Virus genome (UHGV): UHGV-0039449
Source: a virus
Length of the DNA stretch: 44,033 bases
Strand: one strand, 5' to 3'
The notes beneath the pieces were generated by a model that searched no databases, had not been told where the DNA came from, and saw only the letters and a program-made list of their open reading frames with translations. Both the position numbers and the translations under genes were made by a program. Within the stretch, counting starts at the first letter, position 1, and each line of letters begins with the position of its first letter. Positions 3,787 through 33,555 of this stretch are shown here, one piece after another.

Positions 3787-4604
3787 ATGTACATATCCTG
3801 TTTGCGTGCCCACTCAGGGCGTTTAATGATTTCCACACCGCCCCATTCATCATTGATGCGGCATTCGTGATAGGTATTCAGATCCCGGCGGAACAGAGCG
3901 TGCCCGGCATCGACATCCTGCGCATCCAGCTCGAACACGCGTACCGGATACCGACCACAATCAATGCTTTCGCTCACGGCAAGAAAGAAAAAACCATGCG
4001 GCTGACCAGTAACCCTCATTGCGCCTTCGCGGTACATTGCGTCCTGCACGTGGTAGCGGAATTCTTCGATGTGGCGTGCAAAACGGTCCATATCTGCAAC
4101 CTTTTTCACGTCGACGATCACGTTGTGCTCGTTCAGCCATTTGTCTGGACGAATGCGGCACAACTCACCAGTCTCTTCATCGTTCCAGTACATTGATGCT
4201 TCGCAGTAACCAGGTGCTTCCAGCATCCAGCGTGCCGCCGGGTGAGCCATTGCGCTATCACGCATCAGCTCCAGTTTCCGCCACTGCTCGGCATCAAGTA
4301 CCGCAATCCCCATATCCGCTACATCACGAAGAAATGCTTCTTCGTCAGCTTTACCTTGTTTCGTCCGACGATCGAACTTTGGTGAAACAATGAAGCGTTT
4401 GTCGAATTCTCCAGGTTCAAGAAGCAGACAGTGCAATGCAGTTCCCATATCTAGTGCAGACTTTTTCTCTTCGTCTTCTGGTGCTGCCTGAACCCATTTA
4501 AGAAGCGCCGGATTCTTGGCAACCATGTCCAGTTGCGACTTACTCACGCCGTCACCGGCGTGGTAGTCCTCATTGCTGATGTCGAAATAGATGCCAGTAT
4601 TCAT
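3783..4604 (-). CDS. RecE-like PD-(D/E)xK exonuclease (exonuclease VIII-type)
   Basis: 273 aa; N-terminus GIYFDISNEDYHAGDGVSKSQL and IVDVKK motif typical of the RecE C-terminal nuclease fold; paired with RecT. Confidence 0.75.
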   Translation of the reverse strand: MNTGIYFDISNEDYHAGDGVSKSQLDMVAKNPALLKWVQAAPEDEEKKSALDMGTALHCLLLEPGEFDKRFIVSPKFDRRTKQGKADEEAFLRDVADMGIAVLDAEQWRKLELMRDSAMAHPAARWMLEAPGYCEASMYWNDEETGELCRIRPDKWLNEHNVIVDVKKVADMDRFARHIEEFRYHVQDAMYREGAMRVTGQPHGFFFLAVSESIDCGRYPVRVFELDAQDVDAGHALFRRDLNTYHECRINDEWGGVEIIKRPEWARKQDMYI

Positions 4605-4807
4605 AACTTAACCTTGTATTCGTTCTGCTTGTTGGAACGGGTTCCATCGTGGAAATATATTGCGCTCCTGGTTACCTCTACCCATTTGCGACGTTCAAGC
4701 TCAGCGATGAACCAAGAAACCTTCGATCTTGAGATACCAAGAATCTTTGCCATATCTCGGATGCTGTGTTTTCCACCTCGCAGCAATGAGATGAGTGTTG
4801 GTTTCAT
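4601..4807 (-). CDS. Small HTH DNA-binding protein
   Basis: 68 aa; SIRDMAKILGISRSKVSWFIAELERRKWV is HTH-like; overlaps both neighbours by 4 nt. Confidence 0.5.
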   Translation of the reverse strand: MKPTLISLLRGGKHSIRDMAKILGISRSKVSWFIAELERRKWVEVTRSAIYFHDGTRSNKQNEYKVKL

Positions 4808-5103
4808 GCCGCGTCCCTCTGTCCATCAAGCTGATCCGCCAGATCCCAGCGGGCGATAATTGCCATTGCCTCTCGCCGATAGGCATCCATCAGTTCTTCG
4901 AACTCAGGGCTGTCTTTAGCAGCCTCCAGTACTTCCTGGCGAACGCCTTTGCCTGTTACAACGTCGAAAGTTGAGGACAGTTGATGAATTCGGATGCTCT
5001 CAATCAGTTCAACTTGTCGGTCATATAGCTGTTCTGACAGGCGGTAGTCCTTGTCGAATGCCAGCATGATTTTTTGAAGATTTTTCTGCTGATTAACGTT
5101 CAT
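4804..5103 (-). CDS. Hypothetical protein
   Basis: 99 aa from ATG 5103, with GGGAGGG RBS 6 nt upstream. No recognisable domain. Confidence 0.45.
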   Translation of the reverse strand: MNVNQQKNLQKIMLAFDKDYRLSEQLYDRQVELIESIRIHQLSSTFDVVTGKGVRQEVLEAAKDSPEFEELMDAYRREAMAIIARWDLADQLDGQRDAA

Positions 5104-11958: not shown

Positions 11959-13430
11959 AAGATACAGCGTTATCTCCTGAAGAGCAGTTGATCGAGGATA
12001 TTGCAGGGTTCACTCACGATCCGCTTGGTTATGCCCTCTATGCGTTCCCGTGGGGGGAAGAGGGGACTGAACTGGCACATGCCACCGGTCCACGTCAGTG
12101 GCAGGCCGATGCGTTCCGAGAGATACGTGATCACCTGCAGAATCCAGAGACGCGCTATCAGCCGCTTATGCTGGCACGCGCTTCTGGTCACGGTATTGGT
12201 AAATCCGCATTCATCTCAATGCTGATCAACTGGGGCATGTCCACTTGCGAGGATTGTAAGGTCGTGGTGACCGCCAACACCGACAACCAGCTACGAACGA
12301 AGACCTGGCCGGAAATTATCAAGTGGTCGAACCTTGCTATCACGAAAGACTGGTTTACCTGTACCGCTACCGCGATGTACAGCAATGACCTAGGGCACGA
12401 CAAGCGGTGGCGGGCTGACGCAATACCCTGGTCTGAGCACAACACCGAGGCATTCGCCGGACTACACAACGAGCGCAAACGCATCATCGTGGTGTTTGAT
12501 GAAGCGTCGAACATTGCGGATCTGGTGTGGGAAGTTGCCGAGGGTGCGCTTACGGACGAAGACACTGAGATTATTTGGGTGGCGTTCGGAAACCCTACAC
12601 GTAACACCGGGCGTTTTCGCGAATGTTTCCGCAAATATAAACACCGCTGGAAAACTGCGCAGATTGACAGCCGGACGGTGGAAGGCACTAACAAACAGCA
12701 GTTGCAGAAATGGGTTGATGACTACGGGGAAGACAGCGACTTCGTTAAAATCCGTGTGCGCGGTATATTCCCGGATGCATCTGAATTGCAGTTTATCCCT
12801 ACCGGCCTTACTGACGAGGCAATGAAACGGGTGGTAACCGCTGCGCAGGTTGCACATGCTCCGGTGATAATCGGCGTTGACCCGGCATACTCCGGCGTTG
12901 ATGACGCTGTGATATACCTGCGGCAGGGGCTGCACAGTAAGGTGCTGTGGACCGGCAACAAGACCACTGACGATCTGATTATGGCAAAGCGTATCGCTGA
13001 CTTTGAAGACCAGTATCAGGCTGACGCGGTGTTCATCGACTTCGGTTACGGTACCGGGCTGAAGTCAATCGGTGACGGTTGGGGGCGCACATGGCAACTT
13101 GTTCCGTTCGGTGGCGCGTCTACTGACCCGCAGATGCTCAACAAGCGTGGGGAGATGTTCAACTCATGCAAGACATGGCTGAGGCTGGGCGGCATGCTGG
13201 ATGACCAGGAAACAGCGGACGACCTGTCGGCGGCAGAGTACAAAGTTCGCGTGGACGGTAAAATCGTTATCGAACCGAAGGAAGATATCAAAGAGCGGCT
13301 TGGGCGTTCTCCTGGTAAAGGCGATGCGCTACTGCTGACGTTTGCGTTCCCTGTGTCGAAGCGTCTGCGAATTCCCGGGCAGCAGAACCAGCAAGGCAAG
13401 GCGCTTACCGAGTACGATCCATATGCTTAG
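11955..13430 (+). CDS. terL: Terminase large subunit
   Basis: 491 aa; Walker A-like ARASGHGIGKS; Walker B-like IIVVFDEAS; C-terminal nuclease-like region; GTG start overlapping the terS stop. Confidence 0.85.
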   Translation: MKDTALSPEEQLIEDIAGFTHDPLGYALYAFPWGEEGTELAHATGPRQWQADAFREIRDHLQNPETRYQPLMLARASGHGIGKSAFISMLINWGMSTCEDCKVVVTANTDNQLRTKTWPEIIKWSNLAITKDWFTCTATAMYSNDLGHDKRWRADAIPWSEHNTEAFAGLHNERKRIIVVFDEASNIADLVWEVAEGALTDEDTEIIWVAFGNPTRNTGRFRECFRKYKHRWKTAQIDSRTVEGTNKQQLQKWVDDYGEDSDFVKIRVRGIFPDASELQFIPTGLTDEAMKRVVTAAQVAHAPVIIGVDPAYSGVDDAVIYLRQGLHSKVLWTGNKTTDDLIMAKRIADFEDQYQADAVFIDFGYGTGLKSIGDGWGRTWQLVPFGGASTDPQMLNKRGEMFNSCKTWLRLGGMLDDQETADDLSAAEYKVRVDGKIVIEPKEDIKERLGRSPGKGDALLLTFAFPVSKRLRIPGQQNQQGKALTEYDPYA

Positions 13431-14245
13431 TCTTTATTTTTATCATCGAAACCTGATAATCCAGATAGAACACCAAAGTTATTAAAAACGTTTGGCTTAC
13501 CAGATTTTAATCCGGATAAGTTGTGTTGCTCCAAAAAGTTGCTAATTGTTTGGCCGTTGCCAAGTGCAAGGCTTTTTATTTGAGATTTTTCAGGGTATTT
13601 GAGTTTGTATTCGTCGAAATCATTTTGGAGGGTCTTATATGCCTCATTCATTCTTCCCAGAGTTTCCGATATCTCTTTTAATGAATGATTTAGAGCTGCT
13701 AACTGAGCACTGGCGGATCTCAATTCGTCATCTTTAGCTTTCAACTCGGCAGTCAATTCCCCCATACTATTCTTTGATCGAATAATCTCTTCTTTCATCT
13801 CTTGGATGTCTTTTTCCGCGCCAGTCTTAACTTTGTCGTATGTAACATCTTTTTTAGCCAATAACCTCTGCAGTCTGGTTTCACGCTGGATTTTTCTTGC
13901 CTTCAGGTGATTTTCGATTGAGTCATTATTATCAAGAGGCTTTGCTTGCCATACGTTAATGATATTGTTTACCCATGGTAATAGGCAGCAGATAGCAATT
14001 ACAGATAAGCATGGATAAAACATAACAGTTTTCCATGTGCTGTTATCTGAGATATATGAAATTTTATCTATTATGTTTGATTTGCTAAAAAATAGATAAA
14101 GAATTGATTTCCAGTTGAAGGCGCACCAGGACATAACAAAAGCACCAAGCACAGGGTTTTTGGCTCGATTCACGGCAGTATTGGCAGTAGATAAAAACAG
14201 CTCTTTAAACGATTCAAACATGCTAATTACCTTGAAGTTTTTCAT
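13427..14245 (-). CDS. Membrane-anchored coiled-coil protein of unknown function (moron)
   Basis: 272 aa from ATG 14245; two predicted TM segments followed by a long coiled coil; about 30% GC against the phage background; antisense insertion between terL and the portal gene; TATAAT directly abuts the start codon. Confidence 0.5.
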   Translation of the reverse strand: MKNFKVISMFESFKELFLSTANTAVNRAKNPVLGAFVMSWCAFNWKSILYLFFSKSNIIDKISYISDNSTWKTVMFYPCLSVIAICCLLPWVNNIINVWQAKPLDNNDSIENHLKARKIQRETRLQRLLAKKDVTYDKVKTGAEKDIQEMKEEIIRSKNSMGELTAELKAKDDELRSASAQLAALNHSLKEISETLGRMNEAYKTLQNDFDEYKLKYPEKSQIKSLALGNGQTISNFLEQHNLSGLKSGKPNVFNNFGVLSGLSGFDDKNKD

Positions 14246-14249
14246 GATT

Positions 14250-14264
14250 ATACCTTTAAGGTAA
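14250..14264. promoter_or_regulatory. Palindromic site ATACC-TTTAA-GGTAA at the start of the membrane coiled-coil moron
   Basis: Overlaps the TATAAT that abuts the minus-strand ATG at 14245. Confidence 0.4.
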
Positions 14265-14280
14265 TTTGCGGTCATCAAGC

Positions 14281-14304
14281 AAAAAAATGCCCGGCGAACC
14301 GGGC
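14281..14304 (-). terminator. Rho-independent terminator closing the tRNA transcription unit
   Basis: Minus strand GCCCGG-TTCG-CCGGGC followed by TTTTTTT. Confidence 0.6.
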
Positions 14305-14380
14305 GAACTGGAAGCAATGAGTTATGCCTTCCGTGGCTGTACGGGTTTACAGCATGAAGTCATCGCAATGGCGTCCTGCT

Positions 14381-14424
14381 GTAAAAAGGGCGGTGATAGT
14401 CCTTCAAGGGAAACCATCACCGCC
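14381..14424 (-). terminator. Stem-loop with T-run immediately 3' of the tRNA
   Basis: Minus strand GGCGGTGAT-(18-nt loop)-ATCACCGCC followed by CTTTTTAC. Confidence 0.45.
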
Positions 14425-14467
14425 AAGCCCCTGGAACTTCTGGCATCACGGTCCTTAGGCGTGATTC

Positions 14468-14544
14468 TGGCGCGGCATGCAGGATTCGAACCTGCGACCA
14501 ACCGCTTAGAAGGCGGTTGCTCTGTCCAACTGAGCTAATGCCAC
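14468..14544 (-). tRNA. tRNA-Arg (anticodon UCU), phage-encoded
   Basis: 77-nt cloverleaf folded by hand from the minus strand: acceptor GTGGCAT/ATGCCGC, D-arm GCTC/GAGC, anticodon stem ACCGC/GCGGT with loop CTTCTAA, T-arm GCAGG-TTCGAAT-CCTGC, encoded CCA. Confidence 0.8.
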
Positions 14545-14866
14545 AACGCTGAGAGCACTTAGCCTGTTAAGGCACCACACTTTGTCGCGGCTCCATAAAT
14601 GCTCTCATCGTTGCACCCTCGTCTCTTCCGAGGTGTCACACCGAATCGCCGGGATGGTGAATCCCCGTGCGCGGAATAAAACCGCTCGACTTGCACATTC
14701 CGGCTACCTGGTTCGTTTGCCCGAGCAAGGGAGGGTGCCACTTAAACGTATCCAGACCGCTATCGGCGCATGTGCCATACACCGTACTGCTCAAAATAAA
14801 AGCTCACCCCACCTGTTCAATTTAACGACAAGCCAGTCAGGTTAATAACCGGAATGAACTCTTTGC

Positions 14867-14881
14867 TTACCTGAAAGGTAA
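14867..14881. promoter_or_regulatory. Palindromic site TTACC-TGAAA-GGTAA upstream of the portal operon
   Basis: Perfect site about 90 nt upstream of ATG 14972. Confidence 0.5.
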
Positions 14882-14971
14882 TAATTAGTGCGTTAAATGT
14901 CAAGTGTCTACGATAAATAAATCACATGTGGTTAAATTGGTAATAATTTAATTGCGTACGGAGTCATTGAT

Positions 14972-15178
14972 ATGTGCATGGGTAGCTCACCATCAGTGCC
15001 TGCAACACCAGAAGTTCAGGCAGCACCACAGGAGCAGGATGCCGCCGTTGTTGATGCCCGCGACGAAGAAACTCGTCGCCGTCGCGCTGCTGCTGGTCGT
15101 AGTTCTACGCTGCTTACCGGTTCTCAGGGCGACACATCAACCGCTAATACCAGCGGTAAAACGCTGCTTGGTCAGTAA
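14972..15178 (+). CDS. Hypothetical small acidic protein preceding the portal gene
   Basis: 68 aa; its RBS context CGGAGTCATTGATATG is duplicated before the portal gene (CGGAGTCATTGAAATG). Confidence 0.4.
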   Translation: MCMGSSPSVPATPEVQAAPQEQDAAVVDARDEETRRRRAAAGRSSTLLTGSQGDTSTANTSGKTLLGQ

Positions 15179-33284: not shown

Positions 33285-33442
33285 GATGGCGTCTCCACTT
33301 AGCGAATTACATCACCACCGCTGAGACCAATCAGATGGTGGTGAACTGAACGGAGTTGGTCTTACCGGCCTAAGTGGTACCGGCGTCCTTTCGGACCCCC
33401 ATTCAGCCCACCATAATTCTGGCATGACTGTGCTATACGCAT

Positions 33443-33465
33443 AAAAAAACCACGTCTGGCGTGGT
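33443..33465 (-). terminator. Terminator-like hairpin upstream of ant
   Basis: Minus strand ACCACGCC-AGA-CGTGGT region followed by TTTTTTTAT. Confidence 0.45.
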
Positions 33466-33555
33466 ATGCGCCACTTAGTAATCCGGGAGACCAATCCCGG
33501 CACTGGATTTTGCCAGTGCCCGATTACTATGGCACAAGAGGAGTGCGATGTAAAT

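Follow-up and report, generated by a model that had tools for sequence, protein, structure and literature searches.

The minus strand of a 44,033-nucleotide stretch of viral DNA (UHGV virus genome UHGV-0039449; the whole stretch is referred to here as the window) almost certainly specifies a real, selected, structured RNA, which adjoins a phage tRNA-Arg gene. The RNA-like module spans positions 14542-14784 (about 245 bases, with a core of about 170 bases), and comparative analysis has shown a predicted architecture of six helices (P1-P6), organized around a near-invariant strand of 19 bases and including a pseudoknot at P4. It represents a new RNA family, which matches no curated family and is named in no paper in the literature searched. 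Its homologues occur in otherwise unrelated phages, among them P1, lambdoid and N4-like phages, and in about one third of the complete E. coli genomes.

Location and boundaries of the RNA

A tRNA-Arg(tct) gene was located at 14468-14544 on the minus strand by ARAGORN as well as by Rfam (69.4 bits), and the interval 14545-14866 is therefore its 5' flank. A previous sequence-only reading had described this interval as stem-rich, non-coding and richer in GC than its surroundings. The GC content amounts to 0.57-0.58 over 14525-14749, compared with 0.31-0.39 in the AT-rich genes at 13400-14300 and 0.35 at 14825-14974, and thus bears out the last of these points. The interval itself was drawn slightly too long, as the conserved RNA covers approximately 14542-14784 and is preceded by a short 5' leader (Table 1). 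Of the identities proposed for it, that of a phage small RNA was right in kind but wrong in size, as the core comprises about 170 bases and about 245 bases are reached when P6 is included. Membership in a widespread family was not visible from the letters alone. We infer the ends of the RNA from the pattern of conservation and from the adjoining tRNA. The promoter-like pair of the leader scores below the threshold of the promoter scan, and its predicted transcription start lies 1-2 bases ahead of P1.

Table 1 Features of the structured RNA and of its putative transcription unit, in the order of minus-strand transcription
Feature	Position	Strand	Description
Sigma-70-like promoter	14881-14910	-	TAGACA-18-AATTAT; 9 of 12 matches in a consensus scan; points into the RNA; putative function
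Operator-like palindrome	14867-14881		TTACCTGAAAGGTAA; abuts the -10 hexamer at the expected transcription start
5' leader	14785-14866	-	Conserved solely among epsilon15-type phages (alignment, BLAST)
Weaker promoter-like pair in the 5' leader	14815-14820 and 14793-14798	-	TTGAAC and TATTTT; read from the sequence
P1	14764-14784	-	8-bp hairpin CGGUGUAU/AUGCGCCG with near-invariant loop GGCAC
P2 domain	14702-14761	-	Invariant lower helix, covarying base CUGG/CCAG above it, variable apical part (14712-14751)
19-mer	14690-14708	-	GGUAGCCGGAAUGUGCAAG; near-invariant central strand common to P2 and P3
P3	14666-14697	-	UGUGC (3' end of the 19-mer) with GCACG, around a small GCGG/CCGC hairpin
P4 and H-type pseudoknot	14639-14665	-	GGGA/UCCC (4 bp) with 7-base loop UUCACCA
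P5	14617-14633	-	5-bp hairpin CCUCG/CGAGG with conserved loop GAAGAGA
P6	14542-14615	-	Long closing helix UGCAACG-AU-GAGAGCA... with ...UGCUCUC-AG-CGUUGUG; variable apical part
tRNA-Arg(UCU)	14468-14544	-	Downstream of the RNA; presumed to be co-transcribed
Two intrinsic terminators	14389-14424 and 14289-14304	-	Terminator scan; close the unit

Structure and covariation

The structural analysis is based on an alignment of 104 distinct RNA-sense homologues with a mean pairwise identity of 59%, in which invariant blocks alternate with variable stems. Among these 104 sequences, 96.0% of the cells are paired, compared with 27-48% when the partners are slid against each other, and 12 pairs are changed on both sides, corresponding to 293 compensatory cells. 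The covariation score was 0.332 versus 0.142 in shuffled alignments and was reached by none of 500 shuffles; compensatory substitutions were found in five helices. The covariation analysis in related phages that the sequence-only reading had recommended thus uncovered a conserved structure and not the decayed 3' end of a reading frame. A covariance model built from 28 representatives gave a single match in the window (14784-14611, minus strand, 140.8 bits, E = 3e-37) and matched all 66 sources searched, and the alignment obtained with this model, which includes 24 bacterial-genome loci, has 96.5% of its cells paired and 13 pairs changed on both sides.

When compared with shuffled sequences, the minus strand folds with z = -3.0 (none of 100 shuffles as good), and the plus strand is not better than its shuffles (z = -1.3); together with the many G.U pairs, this identifies the minus strand as the structured one. 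A thermodynamic consensus from averaged base-pair probabilities recovered P1 and P5 alone, and the other helices were derived from covariation. Approximately 45-60 bases are invariant, concentrated in junctions and loops, and conservation sets in abruptly at the first base of P1, regardless of the sequence that precedes it.

In helix P1, 97.5% of the cells are paired, the fifth pair being G-C in 72 and A-U in 31 sequences, and its G.U pairs fix the strand. The lower helix of the P2 domain (AGCGGUC with GGUAGCC, including a tandem G.U plus G.A) never varies, and its sequence is compatible with pairing; in the covarying P2 helix, three of the four pairs are changed on both sides, and the second pair is U-A in 56 and C-G in 48 sequences. 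For the 19-mer, which occurs once in the window (0.01 expected), only three single-base variants were present among the matches listed, these loci having been found via another motif. The 3' end of this strand contributes to P3, the weakest of the six helices, whose 3' strand reads GCAC, GUAC, GCAU or GUAU in the homologues (GYAYG), with changes solely from G-C to G.U as judged by eye and uncounted; in the cdtI type, P3 was looked for and not found. P3 competes with the loop of P1 for the GUGC of the 19-mer, and the pairing of this GUGC with the loop sequence GCAC is compatible in 99.6% of the cells, with both sides invariant.

P4 corresponds to the inverted repeat GGGAT/ATCCC that had been noticed at about 14651-14665, and it is maintained through compensatory substitutions: 97.8% of the cells are paired and three of the four pairs are changed on both sides. 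Bases 3-6 of its loop (CACC, 14656-14659) pair with GGUG (14639-14642) to give the pseudoknot, in which one pair is C-G in 80 and A-U in 24 sequences with zero exceptions. Four of the five pairs of P5 are changed on both sides. P6 begins directly after P5 and ends with three bases that are also the first three of the tRNA-Arg; its base is formed by the second repeat noticed beforehand, GAGAGCA/TGCTCTC at 14551-14606. A helix is found at the position of P6 in nearly every variant, with differing sequences (compensatory differences seen by eye), and the sequence is not conserved between subfamilies. In about 40% of the variants, the sequence of the P6 3' strand is UGCUCUY, similar to the core of boxA.

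Coding potential and searches for known families

The statement that no credible ORF is present in the interval agrees with the comparison of homologues. The ORFs of 52-87 amino acids in this region are mechanical ones; no reading frame is conserved among the 104 homologues, the best one being open in 29 of them, and no consistent 3-base periodicity of substitutions was found in the same set. The sole PHROG match is a partial one of 21 residues (E = 5.6e-4). A protein-coding gene or decayed ORF is ruled out by the frames and the absence of periodicity.

Searches for known RNAs, which had also been proposed beforehand, yielded the tRNA-Arg as the only hit in the region and left 14545-14866 empty. 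With the 4227 models of Rfam 15, which include RNase P, tmRNA, 6S, SRP, Y RNA, ribozymes, riboswitches, GOLLD, ROOL, C4, IsrK and EAR, cmscan of 14200-15000 on both strands at E<=10 found nothing inside the interval. The failure to fold a second tRNA from it by eye was confirmed, since none was reported by ARAGORN and none by Rfam, either at the gathering score or at E<=10. A degenerate second tRNA can also be discarded, as neither program finds a cloverleaf and the loop of P4 pairs with a downstream strand and does not form a T-loop. RNase P RNA was rejected as well: the local alignment to E. coli M1 scores 28, which is below the shuffled mean of 32.6, and the likeness of GUGCAAC..GAGAGCA to RNase P RNA is a by-product of the internal pairing of P6. 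For antisense pairing of five conserved segments with 16S, 23S and 5S rRNA or M1, the duplex energies gave z values of -1.3 to +1.3 versus shuffles and did not stand out from these controls.

Among the matches listed, the element is annotated either not at all or occasionally as a "hypothetical protein". Exact 15-mers of the conserved strand occur in no paper, and a search, which was not exhaustive, of the literature on lambdoid and prophage RNAs, ban and trnI of phage P1, catalogues of structured RNAs and the immunity region revealed no description. A catalogue of 10,006 candidate phage RNAs has been published (PMC10690425) and might include the RNA without naming it.

Distribution and mobility

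In BLAST searches, the core (approximately 14598-14785) showed 68-83% identity with otherwise unrelated phages. The module is present in 86 phage records, including P1, P7, D6, Stx2c phages, cdtI, mEp460, phiV10 and SopranoGao. The carriers comprise lambdoid phages (cdtI, mEp460, 2H10, Ayreon, Stx2c-converting phages, 1720a-02 and mEp390), phages of the P1 type (P1, P7, D6, SJ46 and RCS47), epsilon15-type phages (Uetakevirus) of Salmonella, Enterobacter and Klebsiella, and the N4-like Klebsiella phage SopranoGao; for two carrier phages, Stenotrophomonas is recorded as host.

A sensitive search detected the module in 1850 of 5426 complete E. coli genomes (34%), with up to four copies per genome, at 2489 places, of which 1935 are chromosomal and 554 are on plasmids. 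The 591 plasmid records with the module are mostly of about 90-100 kb and non-mobilizable, and this size is the one expected of P1-type phage-plasmids. An exact-match scan with one genome per species gave 24 loci, all in Enterobacterales except for two metagenome bins labelled as Bacillota, which are probably mis-binned. Each of two IMG/VR scans gave at least 120 matches.

The borders of the core are sharp in at least five unrelated neighbourhoods, and each prophage has one copy, with one locus carrying two tandem copies. Judged from these sequence comparisons, the family is a self-contained module that travels between unrelated enterobacterial phages. In epsilon15 itself, three quarters of the RNA have been deleted together with the tRNA. 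When trnI or ban of phage P1 was knocked down by CRISPRi, no plaque defect resulted (PMC10695390), and the region around the element is thus dispensable in the laboratory. On the basis of the epsilon15 deletion and of these CRISPRi data (PMC10695390), the RNA is accessory, not essential.

Transcription unit in the window

In the window, the putative sigma-70-like promoter, the operator overlapping it, the RNA, the tRNA-Arg and the two terminators appear to form one unit. The block 14867-14960, which holds the promoter, is 83-85% identical in epsilon15, PAT1 and Tyrion. The motif of the palindrome (TTACCT-N3-AGGTAA) occurs 17 times in the window versus 1.0 expected, and for epsilon15, the record labels the homologous palindrome a repressor binding site. 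Beyond the unit, the next ORF comes with a separate TATAAT promoter and with another copy of the palindrome.

Context in other phages and prophages

The RNA is always co-oriented with the neighbouring genes and tRNAs. A tRNA lies within 600 bases at 43 or more of 131 loci, in all cases on the strand of the RNA, and at least 88 of the 131 loci are without one. Where the neighbour is a tRNA-Arg(UCU), it comes after the RNA, just like in the window; in the P1-type copies, a tRNA-Ile/Met(CAU) ends about 15 bases before helix P1. On the strand of the RNA, a promoter-like site is found upstream in 54 of 148 distinct contexts (8 on the other strand) and a terminator downstream in 104 of 145 (31 on the other strand); the terminators sit 100-170 bases past P6, without overlap with the core. 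At about 87 of 178 loci, a repressor gene (HTH plus peptidase S24) is located directly upstream on the same strand. Other neighbourhoods are that of ban in phage P1 and, in the N4-like phage, a position past the lysis genes.

In the three lambdoid types that were read, sigma-70 promoters lead into the RNA (TTGACA-18-TACATT, TTGACG-17-TAAATT and TTGCAT-17-TATCTT), helix P1 starting about 35-110 bases past the promoter, and in two of these types an intrinsic terminator of its own closes the repressor gene. The possibility that the RNA is a 3' UTR of the repressor mRNA was excluded because of this terminator and of the promoter that follows in all three types. Operator-like repeats were examined in one of the three types, at a locus in an O111 prophage of the cdtI type (L189), where they follow the repressor terminator and share half-sites with the cI-cro intergenic region. 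With a promoter directly before it, and in L189 also the operator repeats, the RNA occupies in lambdoid prophages the position of nutL in lambda or putL in HK022 (PMC9378689). At L189, nothing else is conserved from the PL-like promoter to the strong terminator that precedes yfdP-yfdQ-yfdR; no ORF or promoter-like site was seen between promoter and first gene, and no promoter-like site after the terminator. The terminator ahead of the early-left genes consists of a hairpin (-19 kcal/mol) with a U run behind it in the cdtI type and of CCCGGGCGCCCCGGG followed by seven U in the BUCT708 type; at the mEp390-type loci, none was seen before the first gene. The first downstream genes (yfdP-like and others) have no match to an N-type family in Pfam or PHROGs.

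In P7, the element belongs to the tRNA-ban gene block, ahead of which the record annotates C1 operators. The RNA thus lies behind a promoter and repressor operators, predicted or annotated, in three phage lineages, and this arrangement points to early lytic expression. In P1 and P7, helix P6 extends over the translation start of ban: its 3' strand takes in both the ribosome-binding site and the start codon, with the start codon paired and the Shine-Dalgarno sequence left in an internal loop. This suggests a cis role in these two phages, and the masking of ban may be a secondary, lineage-specific use of P6.

Proposed function and alternative explanations

The reading that we tentatively prefer, at close to an even chance, is that of an autonomous, early-expressed RNA which acts in trans. 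In the window, the RNA and the tRNA-Arg would be transcribed from the promoter at 14910-14881, which the prophage repressor would shut via the palindrome, so that synthesis of the RNA would fall into the early phase after induction or infection. Transcription would halt at the two terminators, cleavage by RNase P at the 5' end of the tRNA would generate the 3' end of the RNA and release it, and the long duplex of P6 might be a site for RNase III. The released RNA would then use its roughly 45-60 invariant bases to act on a partner that all Enterobacterales have conserved, candidates being a protein of the machinery for transcription or translation and a component of a defence system. A trans-acting autonomous RNA is favoured by the self-contained unit here and elsewhere and by the unrelated nature of the downstream elements.

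The layout of L189 fits better with a cis-acting leader for processive antitermination. By analogy with put of HK022, the nascent fold would bind RNA polymerase, directly or with Nus factors, and make it read through terminators, serving as a substitute for N and nut in lambdoid prophages without an N gene. The nutL/putL position in three lambdoid types, the terminators that precede the early-left genes in the cdtI and BUCT708 types, the lack of an ORF or promoter-like site between promoter and first gene in L189 and the lack of N-type matches among the first downstream genes all argue for this explanation, and RNA polymerase, being near-identical across Enterobacterales, would account for the invariant bases. 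This explanation, the main alternative, is nevertheless rather unlikely. In the window, two terminators close the unit behind the tRNA, any read-through would proceed into the terminase gene in antisense direction, and the following ORF is served by a promoter of its own; in the N4-like phage, the RNA is located near the genome end with just a 56-aa ORF behind it; the mEp390-type loci show no terminator to be read through before the first gene; each prophage has a single copy and no putR equivalent in the rightward operon; and six helices with a pseudoknot (about 170-245 bases) stand against the two stem-loops of put (about 70 bases).

A self-cleaving or catalytic RNA that trims polycistronic early transcripts, for example by freeing the tRNA or by setting its own ends, would be consistent with the pseudoknot, the invariant bases in junctions and loops, the abrupt start of conservation at P1 and the close tRNAs, with the P1-type copies having tRNA-Ile(CAU) about 15 bases ahead of helix P1 and the window having the start of tRNA-Arg inside the 3' strand of P6. 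This is improbable, as no ribozyme model of Rfam matches even weakly, no cleavage site can be proposed from the sequence, most loci lack a tRNA within 600 bases (at least 88 of 131), and RNase P together with RNase E or III would be enough for processing. Similarly improbable is a riboswitch-like sensor or a translational operator of the next gene with P6 as expression platform: the pseudoknotted core with its invariant junction bases does resemble an aptamer, and the 3' strand of P6 pairs with the ban start codon in P1 and P7, but what lies downstream changes from context to context and may be a tRNA, ban, a small ORF or a terminator with yfdP behind it, the terminators past P6 leave the core free, and the sequence of P6 differs between subfamilies.

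That the region has no function of its own is hardly credible, whether it is taken for a tRNA leader, for the remnant of a gene or tRNA, or for a site acting as DNA, for example a recombination boundary: a tRNA does adjoin it in the window, epsilon15 has lost most of the RNA, and CRISPRi of trnI and ban in phage P1 is harmless to plaques (PMC10695390), but a functionless leader is contradicted by the covariation seen in the alignment, with compensatory substitutions in five helices and G.U pairs valid on one strand only, and the near-invariant blocks despite a mean pairwise identity of 59%, the retention in thousands of genomes and unrelated phages and the lack of a conserved reading frame likewise speak against it. 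The tRNA leader put forward by the sequence-only reading fails in addition on the many homologous loci that have no tRNA nearby and on the presence of the module beside unrelated genes.

Significance

P1, lambdoid and Stx-converting phages are among the best-studied genetic systems, and a covarying, pseudoknotted RNA of 170-245 bases has stood unannotated in them at the head of early units. It is possible, if somewhat unlikely, that it belongs to a new class of complex regulatory RNAs heading repressor-controlled early transcripts, either as an element that reprograms the RNA polymerase of the host without a protein, put-like in action but with an unrelated and much larger fold, in N-less lambdoid prophages, including Stx2c-converting ones, or as an RNA-only factor for early takeover or anti-defence. 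A modifier of RNA polymerase would explain early-left expression in N-less lambdoid prophages and would be only the second phage RNA of such a kind; with a trans-acting mode, it would be a novel early effector of phages that consists of RNA. Either way, if true, an unrecognized functional RNA would be present in phage P1 and in about one third of sequenced E. coli. Annotation pipelines leave the locus blank or fill it with spurious "hypothetical proteins", which a covariance model like the present one would fix.

Comparison with known systems

Several phage RNAs share individual properties with the one described here. GOLLD and ROOL, RNAs of about 600-800 bases found for the most part in Firmicutes and related groups, are likewise complex structured phage RNAs and frequently lie beside tRNAs; they differ in their larger size and in the taxa, and their Rfam models gave no match here at E<=10. 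The stable RNAs of the T4 tRNA cluster (species 1 and 2, also designated RNA C and D) are co-transcribed with tRNAs and matured by tRNA-processing enzymes. Compared by description, they resemble the present RNA as stable phage RNAs co-transcribed with a tRNA, the layout that we infer for the window; to our knowledge, they are not modular across phage families, and T4 is virulent. The immunity RNAs C4 of P1/P7 and CI of P4 are regulatory RNAs cut from longer transcripts by RNase P; with about 70-80 bases they are short, and as antisense RNAs they have known targets. A C4/IsrK pair is present in the window at 33334-33519 (Rfam), and the RNA described here lies elsewhere in the genome and has no similarity to C4 or CI.

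The leader of lambda with nutL and N has the same position behind the early-left promoter; the duplex of P6 would be a possible RNase III substrate, and its UGCUCUY, present in about 40% of the variants, recalls the boxA core. Unlike in lambda, no N-like gene is found downstream and no boxB-type hairpin in the RNA, and the boxA-like string is base-paired and missing from the other subfamilies.

The put RNA of HK022 comprises about 70 bases folded into a V of two stem-loops, and each phage has two copies (PMC9378689); it suppresses pausing and termination via the zinc-binding domain of the beta-prime subunit of RNA polymerase (PMC9378689). Set apart by description (PMC9378689), the present RNA has six helices and a pseudoknot and a single copy, and it also occurs outside early-left operons, namely in the tRNA unit of the window, in the ban operon of phage P1 and in the N4-like phage. 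What it has in common with put is the putL/nutL position in lambdoid prophages, downstream of the early-left promoter and upstream of terminators, and the nature of a folded RNA with non-canonical pairs that has no dedicated protein gene alongside.

Conservation and variants of the RNA in related phages

The interval of the window comprising positions 14545-14866, which holds most of the structured non-coding RNA encoded upstream of tRNA-Arg(tct), matches a prophage segment of E. coli EC5654 (NZ_CP095086.1) at 100 % identity, and the neighbouring genes there are the same as well. The layout of the window agrees with that of phiV10, TL-2011b, and vB_EcoP_ZX5, for which integration at guaA has been reported. 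One IMG/VR prophage (locus L028) has the RNA twice in the same orientation, with about 650 bases between the copies. Of these, the second scores 116 bits, carries substitutions in the 19-mer, the otherwise near-invariant central strand, and has several unpaired positions.

In the type phage epsilon15 (L003, NC_004775, 2433-2534; likewise in locus L140), only about the first 50 bases of the RNA are left, corresponding to the P1 helix and the start of P2, and this remnant is joined to the sequence on the 3' side of the tRNA gene. The site annotated as 'RNaseIII mRNA processing' in the epsilon15 record adjoins the remnant and covers the upstream leader.

The closing helix P6 differs among the homologs. 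In phages P1 and P7 (P7: locus L002, 2895-2990), its 3' strand reads CCAGGA-UGGAGUG-UUAAUG; both the Shine-Dalgarno sequence of ban and its AUG lie within this strand, whose pairing partner is CAUUAAUCCUG, located immediately after P5. Pairing of P6 over the ban start could serve translational control of this DnaB-like helicase gene. In some other variants (L014, also L041), the variable apical insertion of P6 contains the T-arm-like sequences CUGGUUCAAUUCCAG and GUCCGUUCAAUUCGGAC, which suggests capture of tRNA fragments at this place.

Region downstream of tRNA-Arg

The tRNA gene is followed on its 3' side by a GC-rich segment of about 150 bases (14320-14467, minus strand) with 75-83 % identity to other epsilon15-type phages, a counterpart of which is kept in epsilon15, a phage with a deletion of the tRNA. 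The segment includes a terminator hairpin, beyond which a second terminator and an ORF are located (see table). The ORF product, for which no match was found in Pfam, has a hydrophobic N-terminus as judged from the translation. A TATAAT promoter with a copy of the operator-like palindrome inside it ends 1 base ahead of the first ATG of this ORF, and therefore the ninth codon may be the translation start.

Features of the window and of locus L028
Feature	Position	Strand	Remarks
Terminator hairpin	14389-14424	minus	14 bp; inside the GC-rich segment
Second terminator	14289-14304	minus	
ORF	13427-14245	minus	272 aa; PHROG 4780, unknown function
IsrK RNA and adjoining C4 antisense RNA	33334-33519	minus	Rfam, 67.7 bits (IsrK), 61.2 bits (C4)
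TTACCT-N3-AGGTAA palindrome (examples)	5278, 5341, 6053, 8384, 8446, 14250, 14867, 32541, 33556, 33937		
RNA copies in L028 (own coordinates)	3994-4152 and 4801-4957	same strand	

Antisense-RNA module and operator-like palindromes

The IsrK/C4 pair is an immI antisense-RNA module of the type known from phages P1 and P7, here within an epsilon15-type prophage, and it has two copies of the operator-like palindrome (33556 and 33937) as neighbours at its flank. When up to two mismatches are allowed, this palindrome occurs 17 times in the whole window, compared to 1.0 expected copies. The copies look like a scattered multi-operator repressor network as known from phage P1.
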